A stretch of DNA of 60,702 bases from a candidate division WOR-3 bacterium (GTDB lineage: Bacteria > Hydrothermota > Hydrothermia > LBFQ01). Of the stretch, positions 24,913 to 43,640 are shown piece by piece. The notes beneath the pieces were generated by a model, which was not told the origin of the DNA, searched no databases, and saw only the letters and a list, made by a program, of their open reading frames with translations. Position 1 is the first letter of the stretch. Every line of letters starts with the position of its first letter. The DNA lies in the NCBI GenBank assembly GCA_015490465.1, contig WFXS01000042.1, positions 1-60,702 on the forward strand. Reading direction: 5' to 3'. The position numbers were made by a program, and so were the translations under genes.

Positions 24913-27900
24913 TTAATCCTCTAATTTTTCCACTATGTATACATTTATTCCTTCCTTCTTAAAAGCTGATGATAACATCTCCCTTTTATTGGAAAGGTTA
25001 CCGGTGATTTCTACAGAGTATTTAGGAGAGAAGTTTTTTATACTTTCAAGGTCATATTTTATTTGTAATATTTTGGGAGGATAGAAATTAAACCTAAATT
25101 CATCTCCATTTTCCCGCATGAAACGTTCTAGAATACGACTGATAACATTCTTATTTTCCACCTCTATAAAGATAGCTAAACGTCTAGGAAACTCAGGTTC
25201 TTTTTCCCCAAGGATCTTGGCAATAATATAATCCACCCTATACATATCAAACTCCAAAAGCCACATTCCTTTCCTTCTAATCACATTAAAGTGGAAATTC
25301 TTTAACCAGTCCTTTACTTCTTTCCTGTTTGCTTTCTGATGAGCTTTTCTGGATATATTTACAATCTCCCTGTGAAGATCATTGTCGGGATCATACTTAG
25401 GTATGGGTTGTTTAACTATGAGCTTTGTAATATGCCTCTCGCCGTAGAGTCCTTGAACTTGATACTTCTTTATTCTATTACCGAGAATTGGCGAATTTAT
25501 AAAAGCTGATATATAAAAGGCTTCTTCTTTGGATTTAAATATAGCGTAAAAAGTAGTGTAATCAACCACAAACCTTTCATGATTCTCTATCACGCAAGCG
25601 CACGGATTAGAGCCACTGGCAGTATAAATCACCAAATATCCACCTCTTACAGGTTGAGAGATAAGTTTATTTCTATAATTCAACCAGTCAATTATATTGT
25701 AGGATTTCGCTTTGTTTCCTTTATATTTTTCCCAAGCTCTTTGGCAACTAACTAGCCATTCTTTAAAATTTTTTGGGACCTTCTTCGTGTTTTCTATCCA
25801 GTATCTAAATTTCTCACTTGCATTTTCAAACTTTTTACTTTTAACTATCTCGTAGTAGTCAAGAAGTTTATAGGTGTCAGAAAACTCCAATGGAAGAACT
25901 ACATCCTCCATATCCGAATAACCAAAAGGATACATCCTATTAGAAAGTATAGTCATAAAGAAGAATTTTTCTGGAGCTGATCCCCGTATTGTCACCTTTA
26001 TTTTATTGCTGTCAGAGTTTTTAGAACGGATAGGAATACTCTCTTTAGACATACCGAGCGAGGTTTTTTCCCGGTTCACAAACCAGAAGGACCGGGGAAC
26101 TATGGTCGCTCCTTCTTTAAATTTTTGGGCATAAATACTTGAACCCACCTGTGAAGGATCATAAACCCATCTGTATTTTCCTCCTATTTCTACAAGATAT
26201 AAAGTTTTCATCTCTCTAGTAAGCTTTTTCCTTGCCACCTCTATATCTACATTAGATTTTGGGAGCTTTCCTGAGAATACCTCTACAGATATATTCTTAT
26301 TTCCTTTAAAATTAGATAGTTGGTTTTTTCTTTTACCTATTACCACACAGGCAGGTACGTTAAAAAGGGGAGAAACATCCTTTAAATCATAAATTTTCCC
26401 TATTTCTAAAACTTCGCCTTTATATTTGTAATTTTTTCTAAACCATTCATTTTGATCCCCAGTTATAACAGAATAAGGAAGGACAAAGGCTATTATCCCG
26501 TTATTTTTTAGGTAGTTTAAGAAAGATGATATTAAGAATATAAGTGCCAATTCTATATGAGACTTATTATGACCATCTACTTTAATATCTAAATCCTTTA
26601 TATATTCTTCCACAAACTTTTGAAGATTTGGATGCATTTTGTTGTAAGCCATCCATGGGGGGTTTCCTACGACAATATCAAACTGCCCTCTCAAAAGAAG
26701 AGGTTTGTATATATTTTTAAGCACGAAAGCCCATATAGTATCCCCTTTATCTTTTATTAATTCATATACTACATTAACGGTATATTCTAATAATCTTTTA
26801 TCTCGCCACAGGGATAAGATGTTATCTTCCACATCGGGGTAATTGGACGAGATATATTGGTAAAAATTTTGCCCTTCCCCATGAATAACATATTCTATCA
26901 CTATATCAATAAACTTATCTATAAGTGAGATATTATTATTTTTGGGTAAAATTATTTCTTTATCATCAATGGTTATTCTAATCTCACTTCCAAAAAATTT
27001 ATTTTTCACATCTTTTATAAGAGCCATCAAACTGTCGGCAGTATATACAGGAAGGGTTATAGTCATACTCCTATTCTTTAGAAGATCACCAAGTGCTATA
27101 AGGTAGTTGGTTCTAGCTATCAATACTGCTATAGGATTTATATCAAATCCTATAACTGTGTTTATAATGAACTTCAACTTTTCGTCTGTATTTTTTAAAT
27201 GCACAGTCTTCTTCATTTTTATCGCGAAAAATAGAAATGATCCCGAACCACAAGCTGGATCTAAAACTCTAGCTCCCGGATCTTTTATAATATCTTCCAA
27301 AATTTCCTGAACAAGCCAGTCGGGTGTATAGTATTCTCCAAGCAGCTGCCTTTCTTCTTTACTTACTATGTTTTGATAAAGCTCCTTCAATAGATCTTCC
27401 TCTATCTCATCGGACAAATGTTCAAAGAGAAACTTCTTCTGGATTACATCAAATATTGTAAAAGATATATCCTGTATTTCTTGTCTTATCTCTTTATTGA
27501 AGATCCAGCCGTAAAAATCGTTCTCTATATAATTCATTATACCTCTTCTTTCAAAGAATTTGCCTGATAGAATTTCCTCCACTAAAATTTCTTCAATACT
27601 ATCTACAGGTATAAGGTTAAGTATTCTTATTGCAAGTAGTTTTACAACAATACTTAGGTATGTATGTCTAAAAAACAAATCCTCTTCTACTTCTGAACCA
27701 TAGACGAAATTCATGTATTTTTCCCACTGTAAAAATTTGAGTTTAATATCCTTATTCTCCCTAATTTTATCGAATGCTTCCCTTAACATTCTTTTTGCAG
27801 TTTGAAAAACTTGAGAATTATACCCAAGAATATCTATTACCCTATCTGATGTTAATGGAACTTTTTGTGGAGTTAAGAAGTATCTATCAATTTTATACAA

Positions 27901-28335
27901 TATATATCTCATTTCCTTTATATTTTCCTCACTCTCTGGTAGAGAGAAAACATCTATAGGTTTTTCTAGATCTTCCCTACTGTAAACTTCAAATTTTATA
28001 CCGTCAGTAATTATACCAAAAGATGCTTTTTTGTATTCATCTGTATTAAAATATTTCCTCAGCTCCTGAAGAGCTTTTACCTTTAAAGGCCTAGAACTTA
28101 TGTCTTTCTTAAATTCAACGATTACCCCATCCAACGATAGATCCACACGCCCAATAAATAATCCTTCACTTCGAACACTTCTTTCAAGTCTTATATTCTG
28201 GAATTGAGCAAAATTCCCAAGCAGTTTCCTTAAGAGCGTAGAAAATAAATCTCTTCTCTCCGCTTCGGTTTTAGCACCTCTGATTTGTCGTGCATAATCT
28301 ACGAGCTCTCCTATACTATTATCTATTTCCATCAC
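24913..28335 (-). CDS. Type IIG (fused) restriction-modification enzyme: N-terminal PD-(D/E)xK nuclease, gamma-class N6-adenine methyltransferase, and C-terminal target-recognition region
   Basis: The protein is 1140 aa. The nuclease motif is 'GRVDLSLDGVIVEFKKD' (D65...E74-x-K76), followed by 'GIITDGIKFEVYS', as in MmeI/Thermus-family enzymes. Motif X is 'GEYYTPDWLV', motif I is 'VLDPACGSGSFLFFA', motif IV is 'FDIVVGNPPWMAY'. A further ~570 aa of TRD-like sequence follows. The gene is far more AT-rich than its neighbours. Confidence 0.8.
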   Translation of the reverse strand: MMEIDNSIGELVDYARQIRGAKTEAERRDLFSTLLRKLLGNFAQFQNIRLERSVRSEGLFIGRVDLSLDGVIVEFKKDISSRPLKVKALQELRKYFNTDEYKKASFGIITDGIKFEVYSREDLEKPIDVFSLPESEENIKEMRYILYKIDRYFLTPQKVPLTSDRVIDILGYNSQVFQTAKRMLREAFDKIRENKDIKLKFLQWEKYMNFVYGSEVEEDLFFRHTYLSIVVKLLAIRILNLIPVDSIEEILVEEILSGKFFERRGIMNYIENDFYGWIFNKEIRQEIQDISFTIFDVIQKKFLFEHLSDEIEEDLLKELYQNIVSKEERQLLGEYYTPDWLVQEILEDIIKDPGARVLDPACGSGSFLFFAIKMKKTVHLKNTDEKLKFIINTVIGFDINPIAVLIARTNYLIALGDLLKNRSMTITLPVYTADSLMALIKDVKNKFFGSEIRITIDDKEIILPKNNNISLIDKFIDIVIEYVIHGEGQNFYQYISSNYPDVEDNILSLWRDKRLLEYTVNVVYELIKDKGDTIWAFVLKNIYKPLLLRGQFDIVVGNPPWMAYNKMHPNLQKFVEEYIKDLDIKVDGHNKSHIELALIFLISSFLNYLKNNGIIAFVLPYSVITGDQNEWFRKNYKYKGEVLEIGKIYDLKDVSPLFNVPACVVIGKRKNQLSNFKGNKNISVEVFSGKLPKSNVDIEVARKKLTREMKTLYLVEIGGKYRWVYDPSQVGSSIYAQKFKEGATIVPRSFWFVNREKTSLGMSKESIPIRSKNSDSNKIKVTIRGSAPEKFFFMTILSNRMYPFGYSDMEDVVLPLEFSDTYKLLDYYEIVKSKKFENASEKFRYWIENTKKVPKNFKEWLVSCQRAWEKYKGNKAKSYNIIDWLNYRNKLISQPVRGGYLVIYTASGSNPCACVIENHERFVVDYTTFYAIFKSKEEAFYISAFINSPILGNRIKKYQVQGLYGERHITKLIVKQPIPKYDPDNDLHREIVNISRKAHQKANRKEVKDWLKNFHFNVIRRKGMWLLEFDMYRVDYIIAKILGEKEPEFPRRLAIFIEVENKNVISRILERFMRENGDEFRFNFYPPKILQIKYDLESIKNFSPKYSVEITGNLSNKREMLSSAFKKEGINVYIVEKLED

Positions 28336-39933: not shown

Positions 39934-40479
39934 ATGACGGCGTATATGAACGACCTGAACTCGTCCTTCCTGAGGAAACTCGTGACCGTTTCACTGGCCG
40001 GATATTCCCATATTGAGAAAAAAGTGGGATATAACGGAATGCGTCACAATACCTACGGAAAACCCGAATACTGCGAAGCCAAGCCTCAGAATGTAAGGAT
40101 CGATAGGAAGAGAAAGTTAAATGGCGGGGGAAGTTTTAACGATTACACGTGGGAGAGGTTCAGGAAGGACGAAAAGGAAGACCCCAACATACTTACAAGC
40201 GGTTTTGTTGAGGGAAAACTCGTTTTCGTTTACGAATTTCCTTTCCGCTGTATAAAGGAGCGCCTGAGAGAACAGCTAAGAAGGAGATTCCCGGATGGCG
40301 ATATACCCGGCCAGTACCTGCGTAGTGCGTCCTTTACATTCAAGCATTACAAGGATTGCCCTGCCTTAAGGCGTGTTTTTGTCGTGCCACCGTACAAACT
40401 CGTGGAATACCGAGGGTACATAACCCGACCGCTTTTTGATGCTCTGTTAAAATGGAGTAAAGAGTGTGAAAAAGTATAA
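39934..40479 (+). CDS. hypothetical protein, candidate restriction endonuclease partner of the adjacent methyltransferase
   Basis: The protein is 181 aa. Its 3' end overlaps the methyltransferase start (GTG at 40466) by 14 nt. It contains 'GKPEYCEAKPQN' (E-x-K context) but no family I can name. Confidence 0.4.
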   Translation: MTAYMNDLNSSFLRKLVTVSLAGYSHIEKKVGYNGMRHNTYGKPEYCEAKPQNVRIDRKRKLNGGGSFNDYTWERFRKDEKEDPNILTSGFVEGKLVFVYEFPFRCIKERLREQLRRRFPDGDIPGQYLRSASFTFKHYKDCPALRRVFVVPPYKLVEYRGYITRPLFDALLKWSKECEKV

Positions 40480-41335
40480 GGATCTTCTCCCCTTCCTTGA
40501 TAAAGTCGCAGAAGGGGACGTACTTGAGGTTTTAAGACAACTCCCCTCCGACAGCATAGACCTCGGCATAACCTCCCCGCCCTACAACAAGAAAGAAAAA
40601 AACAAAGGTTGGCTGGTGGATAGGGTGATATACAAGGGAGCGAGGGATAAGATGCCCGAAAAGGAGTATCAGAGGTGGCAGGTTGAGGTCCTGAACGAAC
40701 TTTACCGCGTTATAAAGCCCGGAGGTTCCTTCTTCTACAACCACAAGCTCCGCTGGGAGAGAGGCAGGATGCTCCACCCTATGGACTGGCTGCGCAGGAC
40801 AAAGTGGGTAATAAGGCAGGAGATAATCTGGGACAGGATGATAGCCGCTAACCTCAGGGGGTGGAGGTTCTGGCAGGTAGAGGAGAGGATATATTGGCTC
40901 TACAAACCGAAAGGCGGGGACCTCATAGGTGAGGAATTAGAGTCCCGCCACGCCCTCCTGACGTCTATATGGAGGATACCCCCGGAGAGGGATAAGAATA
41001 ACCCTCATCCGGCCCCCTTTCCTATTGCCTTGCCTACTCGGATAATTTACTCCATCTTCGGAGACGAGAGGGGGAAGGTCGTACTGGATCCCTTCTGCGG
41101 TAGCGGTACCACGTTGGTGGCAGCCAAACTCCTCGGCCACCATTACATCGGTATAGACATCTCCCCGGAGTACGTGGAGTACGCCCGCAGGCGTCTTGAG
41201 AGGGCCGAGAGAGAACGGGGGAAGGTGTTGGAGGAGATAAGTAAGCACGTCGTCCGAAAGACGTTCAAGGAGAGGAAGGAGCGAGGAGAATTTGTCGGTA
41301 GGTATCGGAAAAAGCGGAGCCTTTTTGATCTATGA
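40466..41335 (+). CDS. beta-class DNA methyltransferase (N4-cytosine or N6-adenine; N6_N4_Mtase family)
   Basis: The protein is 289 aa. Motif IV 'ITSPPYNKK' is near the N-terminus and motif I 'VLDPFCGSGTTLVAA' is near the C-terminus. That is the circularly permuted beta order. The SPPY form favours m4C. Confidence 0.88.
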   Translation: MKKYKDLLPFLDKVAEGDVLEVLRQLPSDSIDLGITSPPYNKKEKNKGWLVDRVIYKGARDKMPEKEYQRWQVEVLNELYRVIKPGGSFFYNHKLRWERGRMLHPMDWLRRTKWVIRQEIIWDRMIAANLRGWRFWQVEERIYWLYKPKGGDLIGEELESRHALLTSIWRIPPERDKNNPHPAPFPIALPTRIIYSIFGDERGKVVLDPFCGSGTTLVAAKLLGHHYIGIDISPEYVEYARRRLERAERERGKVLEEISKHVVRKTFKERKERGEFVGRYRKKRSLFDL

Positions 41336-41430: not shown

Positions 41431-41859
41431 TTATGAAATTTCAATTTTATCGCCACATTTTATCATATAGATCTTATGTTTTCTGAGTTCGCGTCCGTAG
41501 CTGTCCATAAATTCCTTACTTCCTCTGGAGTATACAAGGATTCTCTTAATTTTAGCATTCGGCCCAAAGCAGTGTTTTACATCATAAGTGCTGCCAAGTA
41601 GTTGAAGTATAGGCTTCCTATCGTTGGGTTTCTCTTTGATTTCAATAAGGATATACTGTTCGCTTTTCTTTACAATTACAACACAATCACAGGCCTTTTT
41701 GTTAGGTCGTCCCGGCGCCTTAACGGTATTCCTTAAACATTCTCCTTTCAAGATGATAATAGACTTGGAAGAAATACTAAGTTTCACTTTACATTTACCT
41801 TCTTCACAGCTTTTAATTTTACATTTATGTAGGTTCTTGATGGTGCAATTACCGCTCAT
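41431..41859 (-). CDS. small Cys-rich protein with a PD-(D/E)xK-like motif (candidate nuclease effector)
   Basis: The protein is 142 aa from the ATG at 41859, or 151 aa from the TTG at 41886. It has nine Cys. The segment 'ACDCVVIVKKSEQYILIEIKEK' gives D67...E82-x-K84 in track numbering. It overlaps the upstream ATPase gene by 11-38 nt. It is very AT-rich. Confidence 0.4.
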   Translation of the reverse strand: MSGNCTIKNLHKCKIKSCEEGKCKVKLSISSKSIIILKGECLRNTVKAPGRPNKKACDCVVIVKKSEQYILIEIKEKPNDRKPILQLLGSTYDVKHCFGPNAKIKRILVYSRGSKEFMDSYGRELRKHKIYMIKCGDKIEIS

Positions 41860-43072
41860 GCTCCTTTGTTGATTTGAGTTCCTCAATTTCCTCCATCATG
41901 TCAATGGTTTCGTTATGGAGCTCCACAAGAATATCCGTAAACTCGTCTTCACTTACTCCATCCTCCATAACTTCCAGGTCCTTTATGACCGAACGCTTCC
42001 CGCTCTTTTCAAATAGGTATACCCCGACCTTCTCCGGAGGGATGTTAGGACGATCTAACCTCCCGGCTGTGTTTCTCAAAATGAGGTGGTTGAGTATAGA
42101 GATGATGTAATCACTGTGGGTGGTAATGATGAATTTATACCCTTCCCTTACAAGGAAAGCGATAAACTCCATAAGTTCCTTCTGGGCGCCGGGATGGAGG
42201 GAAAGTTCAGGCTCCTCCACTATGAACATCGTTCCCTTAGGCAGATATGCGAACAGGTAATAGAAAGGTAATAGTTGTTTCAAACCTGAAGATAGGGAGC
42301 TGCGGCTCAACTTCTTTCTCCCGTACTTGAAAACCCATCTTCGTAATTTTGGACTGTAAGATACTTTTACATCCGCTATGTTCAGTATCTGATAAGCGAA
42401 CGCAGAGATAGATCCTTTGGATCTTGCAACGTAATCCATGGAATCTCGTAAAACTTTCCTGAATTCTCTGTAAAGTATGGCATTAGATGGAAGATCCAGA
42501 ATATCCATAAATTCAAATATATAACCTCTGTGTTCCGGCACATAGACTACGTCCTCATCCGACATTATTCTATAAAAGTATGACAAAATTTTTAAGTTAT
42601 TCTTATCCCTAAGGTACTCTTTGCCGGAATAGTAAGCAACGAACTTCAAATACTCCTTGAAATCACTCTTATTAACAGGTTTAAATGCGATCTCATTCTT
42701 AGTTCCCAGCCTGAGGTTAAACTTATCCGTTTCCACGTATATATTTTCAAAGTTAGATATCTCATCACCAAGAATACCCACGATATCCCTTCTGACTTCG
42801 TCCATAATCCATCTCTTGGCCTCTTCCTGCCCTCCGGCTATATACGGTATTACCGCATCCTCGTACTCTAACGCATAGCGTATTACAGATTTCCCCAAGA
42901 AATCCATAGGTTTCATAAGGAACCTTGTAAGAGCGTAGTACAGTTTAGCAATAAGGGACTTTCCGGAGGAGTTGGGACCTATGAAAACCGTTAAGGGTTT
43001 GAACTCAACTCTTCCCTCTTTAACAGGACCAAACCTACGAATTTCCAGACTTCTTATAAAAGGACGGGCCAT
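41849..43072 (-). CDS. ABC/OLD-type (AAA_15/AAA_21-like) ATPase without a fused nuclease domain
   Basis: The protein is 407 aa. It has Walker A 'GPNSSGKS', ABC signature 'LSSGLKQ', Walker B 'MFIVEEPELSLHP' and H-loop 'ITTHSD'. A long helical insert separates Walker A from the signature. Confidence 0.8.
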   Translation of the reverse strand: MARPFIRSLEIRRFGPVKEGRVEFKPLTVFIGPNSSGKSLIAKLYYALTRFLMKPMDFLGKSVIRYALEYEDAVIPYIAGGQEEAKRWIMDEVRRDIVGILGDEISNFENIYVETDKFNLRLGTKNEIAFKPVNKSDFKEYLKFVAYYSGKEYLRDKNNLKILSYFYRIMSDEDVVYVPEHRGYIFEFMDILDLPSNAILYREFRKVLRDSMDYVARSKGSISAFAYQILNIADVKVSYSPKLRRWVFKYGRKKLSRSSLSSGLKQLLPFYYLFAYLPKGTMFIVEEPELSLHPGAQKELMEFIAFLVREGYKFIITTHSDYIISILNHLILRNTAGRLDRPNIPPEKVGVYLFEKSGKRSVIKDLEVMEDGVSEDEFTDILVELHNETIDMMEEIEELKSTKEHER

Positions 43073-43118: not shown

Positions 43119-43640
43119 TTATCCCCCTTTCAGATTGAGATTCTCCGCAAGTTTATAGAACAGTTCCTCCCTGTTTTCAAGGGTTATCAGGATGGGCCGG
43201 AAGGTTCTCCTTATCCTCCTTACAAGAGGGTGAACGTCCTTTATAGGTACTGTGGCCAGAACCCTTATGTTCCTCCGAAAGGCTATCCCCTCAACCACCC
43301 TGACGAACCTATCACTGAAGAGCTCCATTTTACCTATTTCGTCCACAAGTACGATCTCTGGACAGAGAGGTAAGCACGACTCAAGCACGGGTACAACCAC
43401 CTCCTCAAACCCCCGGACGTTCACCCCGTACTTCCCCACCCTGTAGGGACTCTCAAAATCTACGTGGGCAAGAATACCTTCCTTCCCTTCCGTCGTTATC
43501 ACCTTAAACCCCACCCTCCTTCCCCTCTCCCTTATCTCCTCCGTCCAGAAACCCCTGAACCTTTCAGGAGCGAGAGCGTACAACCTCTTAATCAGGGTAG
43601 TTTTTCCTACGCCCGGTTTACCCGTAACGAATACCTTCAA
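43119..43640 (-). CDS. THEP1-like nucleoside-triphosphatase
   Basis: The protein is 173 aa. It has 'MKVFVTGKPGVGKTTLIKR' and Walker B 'IVLVDEIGKMEL'. The size matches Aquifex THEP1/NTPase family members. It shares a 4-nt overlap with trxB. Confidence 0.75.
   Translation of the reverse strand: MKVFVTGKPGVGKTTLIKRLYALAPERFRGFWTEEIRERGRRVGFKVITTEGKEGILAHVDFESPYRVGKYGVNVRGFEEVVVPVLESCLPLCPEIVLVDEIGKMELFSDRFVRVVEGIAFRRNIRVLATVPIKDVHPLVRRIRRTFRPILITLENREELFYKLAENLNLKGG

Follow-up and report, generated by a model that had tools for sequence, protein, structure and literature searches.

Which kind of system is encoded by two overlapping genes in the genome of a candidate division WOR-3 bacterium? 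The genes lie on contig WFXS01000042.1 of GenBank assembly GCA_015490465.1, and the whole stretch of DNA analysed, referred to here as the window, covers 60,702 nucleotides (nt). Gene A encodes an ATP-binding cassette (ABC) ATPase, and gene B, which overlaps its end, encodes a small, cysteine-rich protein. An initial annotation, made from the sequence of the window, had presented the pair as an undescribed defence system with an unrecognised effector. This description has to be abandoned, because the validated systems PD-T4-4, WonAB, and HEC-02 already pair such an ATPase with a PD-(D/E)xK nuclease, and PDC-M47, a candidate system of PADLOC, has a known layout of the same type; the partner ATPases of the gene B homologues score best on the PD-T4-4_A model, and the family profile of the small protein reaches PDC-M47B. 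The pair falls within the PD-T4-4/PDC-M47/WonAB kind, as a divergent branch that has so far escaped annotation, rather than forming a new kind of system. Together with these three, it is quite probably a two-gene anti-phage module composed of an OLD-type ABC ATPase and a small PD-(D/E)xK nuclease.

A conserved pair of overlapping genes

The open reading frame (ORF) of gene B (41431-41859, reverse strand) was missed by two gene callers, and one other gave a product of 118 amino acids (aa), P0001, from an internal GTG. It is a genuine coding gene, because a variant of the locus in the JGI contig L001, with 87.6% nucleotide identity, keeps its ATG and its frame, uninterrupted up to where the contig stops, and the substitutions favour third codon positions, with 42 nucleotide differences in 79 codons, distributed 24:12:6 over codon positions 3, 1, and 2. 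The variant also keeps the 11-nt overlap with gene A, while the internal GTG of the shorter call is GTA in L001. Judged by this comparison, the start is therefore most likely the ATG at 41859, which gives a product of 142 aa; the initial annotation had offered this codon together with a longer version of 151 aa, which is not favoured. The coordinates of the ORFs were correct as first given, as was the placement of the gene A stop codon (41849-41851) within gene B. The resulting overlap of 11 nt (41849-41859, ATGAGCGGTAA) is consistent with translational coupling. The overlap also measures 11 nt in locus L008, 1 nt in L005, and 4 nt in L031.

A word-indexed protein search with gene B returned the self-match only. 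The first homologue, P0122 (E 1.5e-6, with 34% identity across 90 residues), came to light when 1.84 billion representatives were searched exhaustively with HMMER, and a profile search added P0124-P0130. The C-D-C...E-x-K core of the protein was also back-translated to a DNA pattern covering a single D-to-E spacing, which matched once in the window and in none of 100 shuffles. Scans with this pattern recovered five true loci in the JGI metagenomes and seven in 185,579 species-representative GTDB genomes, all seven in metagenome-assembled genomes (MAGs) of Nitrosopumilaceae/Thaumarchaeota, and found none in viral contigs. The homologue set for gene B comprises about 20 members, from bacterial metagenomes and Nitrosopumilaceae archaea.

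In all 16 of the loci outside the window with readable upstream DNA, the gene immediately preceding the gene B homologue, in the same orientation and overlapping it or nearly so, encodes an AAA_15/21 ATPase. These are the loci of P0122 (L005), P0128 (L008), P0129 (L009), and P0130 (L010, in which the upstream ATPase is fragmented), together with the five JGI loci and the seven from Nitrosopumilaceae/Thaumarchaeota. The pairing of genes A and B, with its tight coupling, is conserved in both bacteria and archaea, and the translationally coupled layout, with the ATPase first and the effector second, is supported as originally proposed. Two relatives of the gene A ATPase of approximately 400 aa, P0058 (L031) and P0077 (L032), also have overlapping cysteine-rich partners, with the cores CDCFVV...AVEIL and CDYLVLL...FVELKGR, respectively, and the partner in L031 was recruited by the family profile (jackhmmer) at 9.6e-13.

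The archaeal branch consists of L019, L021, L022, and L024-L027, all from Nitrosopumilaceae/Thaumarchaeota MAGs, one of which, CAXXXK01, carries two copies. In two JGI loci, L012 (103-579; Ga0190304) and L018 (435-911; Ga0190303), none of the codons ATG, GTG, and TTG precedes the conserved cysteine motif in the open frame of the small gene. The pattern also caught an unrelated 189-aa protein in a Hainich groundwater contig (L015, 4756-5322), which is Cas4/PDDEXK_9-like and carries RCDCII...VIEMK. This match shows that the CDC...ExK motif is a generic restriction-fold signature; the jackhmmer match to the same Cas4-like ORF is non-independent, since the locus was chosen by the same DNA pattern.

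The predicted nuclease core of the small protein

The product of gene B has nine cysteines and a segment of the form ACDCVVIV...YILIEIKEK, from which the initial annotation had derived a D...ExK site at D67, E82, and K84, equivalent to D58, E73, and K75 when numbered from the ATG. This reading stands, as all three residues are invariant in the homologues. In an alignment of 13 diverse sequences, including those of archaea, C18, C23, E40, C57, D58, C59, E73, and K75 are invariant, and G39, I60, and C135 are near-invariant. The E...D...ExK arrangement is the constellation of the restriction endonucleases, or PD-(D/E)xK enzymes, and the invariance of E40, D58, E73, and K75 supports the prediction of a PD-(D/E)xK core in gene B. 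The predicted catalytic core, C57-D58-C59...E73-x-K75, is encoded at 41635-41691 on the reverse strand (CDCVVIVKKSEQYILIEIK) and is supported by the pattern and the alignment. The count of nine cysteines was also correct, although only two of the four N-terminal cysteines that had been emphasised are conserved, that is, the pair C18-x4-C23, encoded at 41791-41808 on the reverse strand and recognised in the family alignments, together with C57 and C59 in the core. These four invariant residues form a putative structural metal (Zn) site.

The Pfam family HSDR_N_2 weakly matches the D...ExK core in three of the 13 members (best E 6e-4). Structure prediction with AlphaFold2 gave a predicted local distance difference test (pLDDT) score of 46 from the single sequence and 54 from nine sequences. 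The low-confidence model obtained from the nine sequences has the order beta(34-38)-beta(56-63, with D58)-beta(67-74, with E73 and K75)-alpha-beta-alpha, a topology that provides a weak but consistent fit to the restriction fold. The list of weak Foldseek matches is rich in restriction-fold nucleases, such as MUS81, VC1899/Card1, NucS/EndoMS, the Cas4-family ACE1, and Nt.BspD6I. Other comparisons were negative, with gene B remaining undetected by the models of Pfam, NCBIfam, and PADLOC v2.0.0 and finding nothing significant among the PDB sequences, in which the family profile also found no meaningful match. A tblastn search of plasmids with gene B recovered only chance matches, to Bacillus transposases. 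Signals of RloB/DUF4276, HNH, or TOPRIM, any of which would have pointed to a known system, were found in neither gene B nor the 13 family members (Pfam, PADLOC, and NCBIfam). With this result, the invariant D...ExK residues, and the synteny, the pair withstands the sequence-level checks that the initial annotation had named as able to refute it.

The ATPase encoded by gene A

Gene A (41849-43072, reverse strand) encodes an OLD-type ABC ATPase of 407 aa, recognised by its Pfam and PADLOC matches and by the positions of its motifs. The Pfam matches are to AAA_15 (9.7e-23) and AAA_21 (1.1e-22), spanning aa 232-325. The motifs lie exactly where they were first placed, with the Walker A motif or P-loop, GPNSSGKS, at aa 32-39 (42956-42979, reverse strand; Lys K38), the ABC signature LSSGLKQ at aa 260-266, the Walker B motif, MFIVEEPE, at aa 282-289 (42206-42229, reverse strand; E286/E287), and the H-loop, ITTHSD, at aa 316-321 (His H319). 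The Walker B motif is followed by an LHP motif, which is typical of the OLD-type ABC ATPases, and an Arg-type Q-loop, PEHRG, is found at aa 179-183 (Arg R182). A C-terminal extension covers approximately aa 325-407, and the C-terminus aligns both with the C-terminal end of the partner ATPase from archaea and with positions 295-450 of the 460 positions of the PD-T4-4_A profile. Pfam detects neither TOPRIM nor HNH in gene A, nor any other nuclease domain, as had been stated from the outset.

Among the PADLOC models, gene A matches NsnB (1.1e-30), PD-T4-4_A (3.9e-28, 97 bits), AriA (2.6e-25), PDC-M47A (3e-21), HEC-02A (7e-20), AbiLi (6e-15), PtuA (1.8e-14), and Old (2.4e-13). The matches in NCBIfam are weak and sub-threshold, to MAD3 and a ‘restriction system-associated AAA ATPase’, and tblastn searches of plasmids and phages with gene A went no further than partial matches, in the C-terminal half of the protein, which is conserved.

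Relationship to known two-gene systems

The ATPases provide a link with PD-T4-4. The best PADLOC model for the partner ATPases of the gene B homologues is PD-T4-4_A, with E-values of 1.6e-52, 2e-39, and 7.6e-34, and the same is true of P0058 (9e-47). Judged by these matches and by that of gene A itself, gene A and PD-T4-4_A are probably homologous ATPases, although NsnB is a slightly better match for gene A. The E-values of bona fide members on the PD-T4-4_A and PDC-M47A profiles range from 1e-91 to 1e-233, compared with 3.9e-28 and 3e-21, respectively, for gene A. The loci used for this comparison were bona fide PD-T4-4 systems from the Col plasmids of E. coli and Klebsiella and from a P2-like Vibrio phage, and PDC-M47 from an Annamia plasmid. 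PD-T4-4 itself is reportedly an E. coli system, from the work of Vassallo et al. in 2022.

At the level of the small proteins, the family hidden Markov model of gene B reaches the PDC-M47B protein of Annamia, at 8.2e-6 among 1871 ORFs, while a single family member matches the PDC-M47B model at 0.004 and five match PDC-M29B weakly. Comparison of the family with the core of PD-T4-4_B gave an E-value of 0.004 and a probability of 8% in hhalign, and 1.6e-4 in hmmsearch with Z=4. The cores can be lined up as SCDLVIV...VVLDLKSK...IQIENS in PD-T4-4_B, RCDFILIS...FIEMKAG...QQFKGG in the PDC-M47B protein of Annamia, and ACDCVVIV...LIEIKEK...LQLLGS in gene B.

The overall organisation is also similar, given that PD-T4-4 and PDC-M47, like the A/B pair, consist of an OLD-type ABC ATPase gene followed on the same strand by a small B gene, the two genes overlapping or lying a few nucleotides apart, and that the B proteins have in common a core with a C-D-x-hydrophobic strand, a hydrophobic-(D/E)-x-K-S/E-K segment, and a downstream Q. 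PD-T4-4 has been classed as a defence system composed of a PD-(D/E)xK nuclease and a P-loop NTPase (bioRxiv 10.1101/2025.07.10.664194). The differences lie in the size of the proteins, in the N-terminal region of the B protein, and in the occurrence of the systems. The ATPase has 407 aa in gene A and 460-474 aa in PD-T4-4/PDC-M47, and the B protein has 142 aa compared with 184-210 aa in PD-T4-4/PDC-M47, in which it belongs to no Pfam family. The PD-T4-4_B protein has a cysteine-free N-terminal region of approximately 70-85 aa, whereas gene B has a short C-x4-C hairpin and a C-D-C motif in its place, with four invariant cysteines. While PD-T4-4 and PDC-M47 are found in enterobacterial plasmids and P2-like phages, the gene B branch is found in the metagenomes of thermophilic and uncultured bacteria and in Nitrosopumilaceae.

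WonAB, from the WASA-1 prophage of Vibrio cholerae, consists of an OLD-type ABC ATPase and a PD-(D/E)xK protein of 16.1 kDa, and defence is abolished by each of the WonA substitutions K34A, R182A, E300A, and H333A, and by K71A in WonB (PMC12137116). The spacing of these residues is near-identical in gene A, with K34, R182, E300, and H333 of WonA corresponding to K38, R182, E286-287, and H319, and the small proteins are also comparable, with the catalytic K71 of the 16.1-kDa WonB facing K75, in E-x-K, in the 142 aa of gene B. WonB is predicted to dock onto the dimerised C-terminal extensions of WonA, and activation of the system after the onset of phage DNA replication leads to translation arrest, with the genomic DNA remaining intact (PMC12137116). 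According to the authors of that study, WonAB belongs to the same larger family as PD-T4-4 and the ‘OLD-ABC ATPase + novel REase’ operon of Krishnan et al. 2020 (PMC12137116). Read in one frame, the published quantitative PCR primers for wonB encode NCLKGS and CDWILS, similar to the LKG and C-D-hydrophobic motifs of the gene B family. This provides only a hint, and a scan of viral contigs with a published wonB primer found no match. Unlike the gene B family, with its cysteine quartet, no cysteine or metal site is mentioned in the WonAB paper (PMC12137116), and WonAB is prophage-borne, mainly in Gram-negative bacteria.

HEC-02 combines an ABC ATPase with a separate effector of the NERD type, which belongs to the PD-(D/E)xK superfamily, and its defence requires both genes (Payne et al. 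2024 preprint). Gene A resembles HEC-02A, as seen in its PADLOC match, whereas no member of the gene B family matches HEC-02B or NERD. Septu (PtuA-PtuB), PARIS (AriA-AriB), AbiL (AbiLi-RloB), and Gabija/OLD have the ATPase superfamily and the logic of a sensor ATPase with a nuclease in common with the A/B pair, but their effectors are HNH, TOPRIM, or DUF4276 proteins or are fused to the ATPase, and the gene B family has none of these features. In Gabija and OLD, for example, a TOPRIM domain is fused to the ATPase, whereas gene A holds only AAA_15/AAA_21 in Pfam.

Alternative interpretations

The assignment of the pair to the PD-T4-4/PDC-M47/WonAB kind of anti-phage module has to be set against a number of observations that weigh against it. 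Gene B itself has no match to the PD-T4-4_B or PDC-M47B models of PADLOC, even at E <= 10, and the B proteins are linked weakly, at the profile level only. The structure model is of low confidence (pLDDT 54), with no significant Foldseek match in the PDB (best E 0.07), and in PADLOC the NsnB model gives gene A a slightly better score than PD-T4-4_A does. The likeness to WonAB (AWB73975.1 and AWB73976.1) was drawn only from published residues and sizes. The two nearest relatives of the ATPase lack an intact small gene, which is absent in L034 and reduced in L035, a Poribacteria MAG, to a 68-aa remnant (CSGEGCNV..., 1879-2082). Finally, the archaeal loci, L008, L009, and L031 are flanked by housekeeping genes, and not by defence genes. 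On the other side, a foreign origin of the pair, as suggested by its G+C content of 40% compared with 54% and by the restriction-modification (R-M) neighbour, speaks for a defence module.

The housekeeping surroundings are the basis for a reading of genes A and B as a DNA-repair or recombination pair of ATPase and nuclease, analogous to SbcCD or Rad50-Mre11. The archaeal copies adjoin core genes, encoding S-adenosylmethionine (SAM) synthetase, NFACT, and an FAD oxidase, with the same NFACT-adjacent locus found in two Nitrosopumilaceae species, and L008 and L009 lie amid haem-biosynthesis genes. However, the pair has a very sparse and scattered distribution, with seven true loci in the 185,579 genomes at the one D-to-E spacing scanned, it has a foreign G+C content in the window, its partner gene has been lost or has decayed in some relatives (L034 and L035), and the ATPase falls in the OLD/PD-T4-4 clade, in which the tested members are defence systems, all of which makes a repair function very unlikely. 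The R-M neighbour, in turn, raises the prospect that the ATPase and the small nuclease act as the ATP-dependent restriction arm of an N6_N4 DNA methyltransferase, whose gene (40466-41335) is convergent with the pair at a distance of 95 nt, so that the whole block at 39.9-43.1 kb would be one R-M-like system. The 181-aa ORF upstream of the methyltransferase belongs to no recognisable nuclease family, and the weak NCBIfam matches of gene A are to MAD3 and a restriction-associated ATPase, but the methyltransferase already has this ORF as its own overlapping partner, no homologue of either is found in any other locus carrying the pair, and the gene tables of L008, L009, L010, L031, and L032 contain no adjoining methyltransferase. 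The adjacency to R-M genes that was first pointed out is real in the window and is not conserved in the other loci; a single R-M system was rejected on account of this absence, and is a highly improbable explanation.

The strongest single PADLOC match of gene A, to NsnB (1.1e-30, over near its full length), would make the locus a degenerate or partial Menshen system. Against this, Pfam finds no DUF3696 in gene A at E <= 1, no ParB/DUF262 NsnA or NsnC gene lies nearby, and the Walker B and signature motifs of gene A read EE and SSG, compared with EN and GxG in NsnB. In BLAST comparisons of gene A, a real NsnB from a Vibrio phage (L033) is the weakest match, at 53 bits, while the other full-length ATPases, including those with cysteine-rich partners, score from 119 to 83 bits. 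The Menshen reading was rejected given the lack of DUF3696, NsnA, and NsnC, the deviant motifs, and this weakest pairwise score, and has hardly any probability left. It is also highly improbable that gene B is no functional nuclease and serves as an adaptor, or as a regulator that binds DNA or RNA, with restriction-fold-like motifs merely retained, which would leave the ATPase or a host factor as the effector. The low-confidence structure model, the lack of a significant match in fold or sequence to a characterised nuclease, and the distant relative in L031, with E-I-L in place of ExK, would fit such a role, but E40, D58, E73, and K75 are invariant in the 13 diverse members, archaea included, and the equivalent lysine is essential in WonB (K71A; PMC12137116).

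Possible mechanism and significance

If the pair is a module of the PD-T4-4/PDC-M47/WonAB kind, its most likely mechanism, by analogy, is a nuclease activity licensed by the ATPase that aborts the infection. Following the models of WonAB and PD-T4-4, the ATPase would dimerise in an ATP-driven manner, and its C-terminal extensions would dock the small nuclease. This nuclease would then be licensed by the binding or hydrolysis of ATP, together with a cue from the infection, which in WonAB comes after the start of phage DNA replication. Once licensed, the nuclease would cut nucleic acid and the infection would be aborted; in WonAB, the target is likely to be tRNA or rRNA, because translation stops and the genomic DNA is intact.

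In the gene B branch, a metal ion held by C18, C23, C57, and C59 may staple a short N-terminal beta-hairpin to the catalytic strand, replacing the larger, cysteine-free domain of PD-T4-4_B. The alignments suggest that this invariant four-cysteine module, in place of the cysteine-free N-terminal region, may be the distinctive trait of the branch. A bolder proposal is that the C-x4-C pair and the C-D-C motif flanking the catalytic Asp define a distinct effector class, in which a metal- or redox-sensitive site on the catalytic strand gates the nuclease, and which would be the first abortive-infection system of this type in the ammonia-oxidising Thaumarchaeota, although this is unlikely.

The branch widens the range of PD-T4-4/WonAB-type immunity to Nitrosopumilaceae archaea and uncultured bacteria, in loci that Pfam, NCBIfam, and PADLOC v2.0.0 all miss; with an alignment and a profile of the small-protein family, such loci could be called in defence annotation. 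The cysteine quartet around the catalytic Asp provides a concrete, testable structural contrast to PD-T4-4_B, and does not represent a new class of system.

Genomic neighbourhood

In the window, the pair has as neighbours the NTPase_1 and thioredoxin-reductase-like genes and the methyltransferase gene with its 181-aa ORF. The NTPase_1 gene (43119-43640, reverse strand), of the THEP1 type, lies 46 nt upstream of gene A, with no promoter-like site between them, and the pair may be co-transcribed with the upstream housekeeping genes. No flanking direct repeats, tRNA gene, or convincing promoter or terminator were found around the pair. On the other side, at 39934-41335 on the forward strand, the 181-aa ORF, which has no family or PDB match, shares 14 nt with the overlapping gene of the N6_N4 DNA methyltransferase (2e-39), and the two form a probable type II R-M pair, with an unclassified endonuclease. 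In the other loci, L010 has McrBC, MNT/HEPN, and MazE genes as neighbours, and L035 has an AbiL-like pair of AAA and DUF4276 genes 1.3 kb away.

The pair has a G+C content of 40.2%, compared with 54% for the window. The initial annotation had described no other DNA in the window as being so AT-rich, and its hand counts of G+C (17/60 and 42/60) were correct, but the minimum is found at 25-28 kb, with 32.8%. This stretch of approximately 33% G+C contains an ORF of 1140 aa (24913-28335, reverse strand), which matches N6_Mtase (3e-15), Eco57I (9e-12), and MmeI_N (5e-5) in Pfam and carries an NPPW motif. It encodes a fused restriction-modification enzyme of the MmeI/Eco57I type, a second horizontally acquired defence gene in the window.

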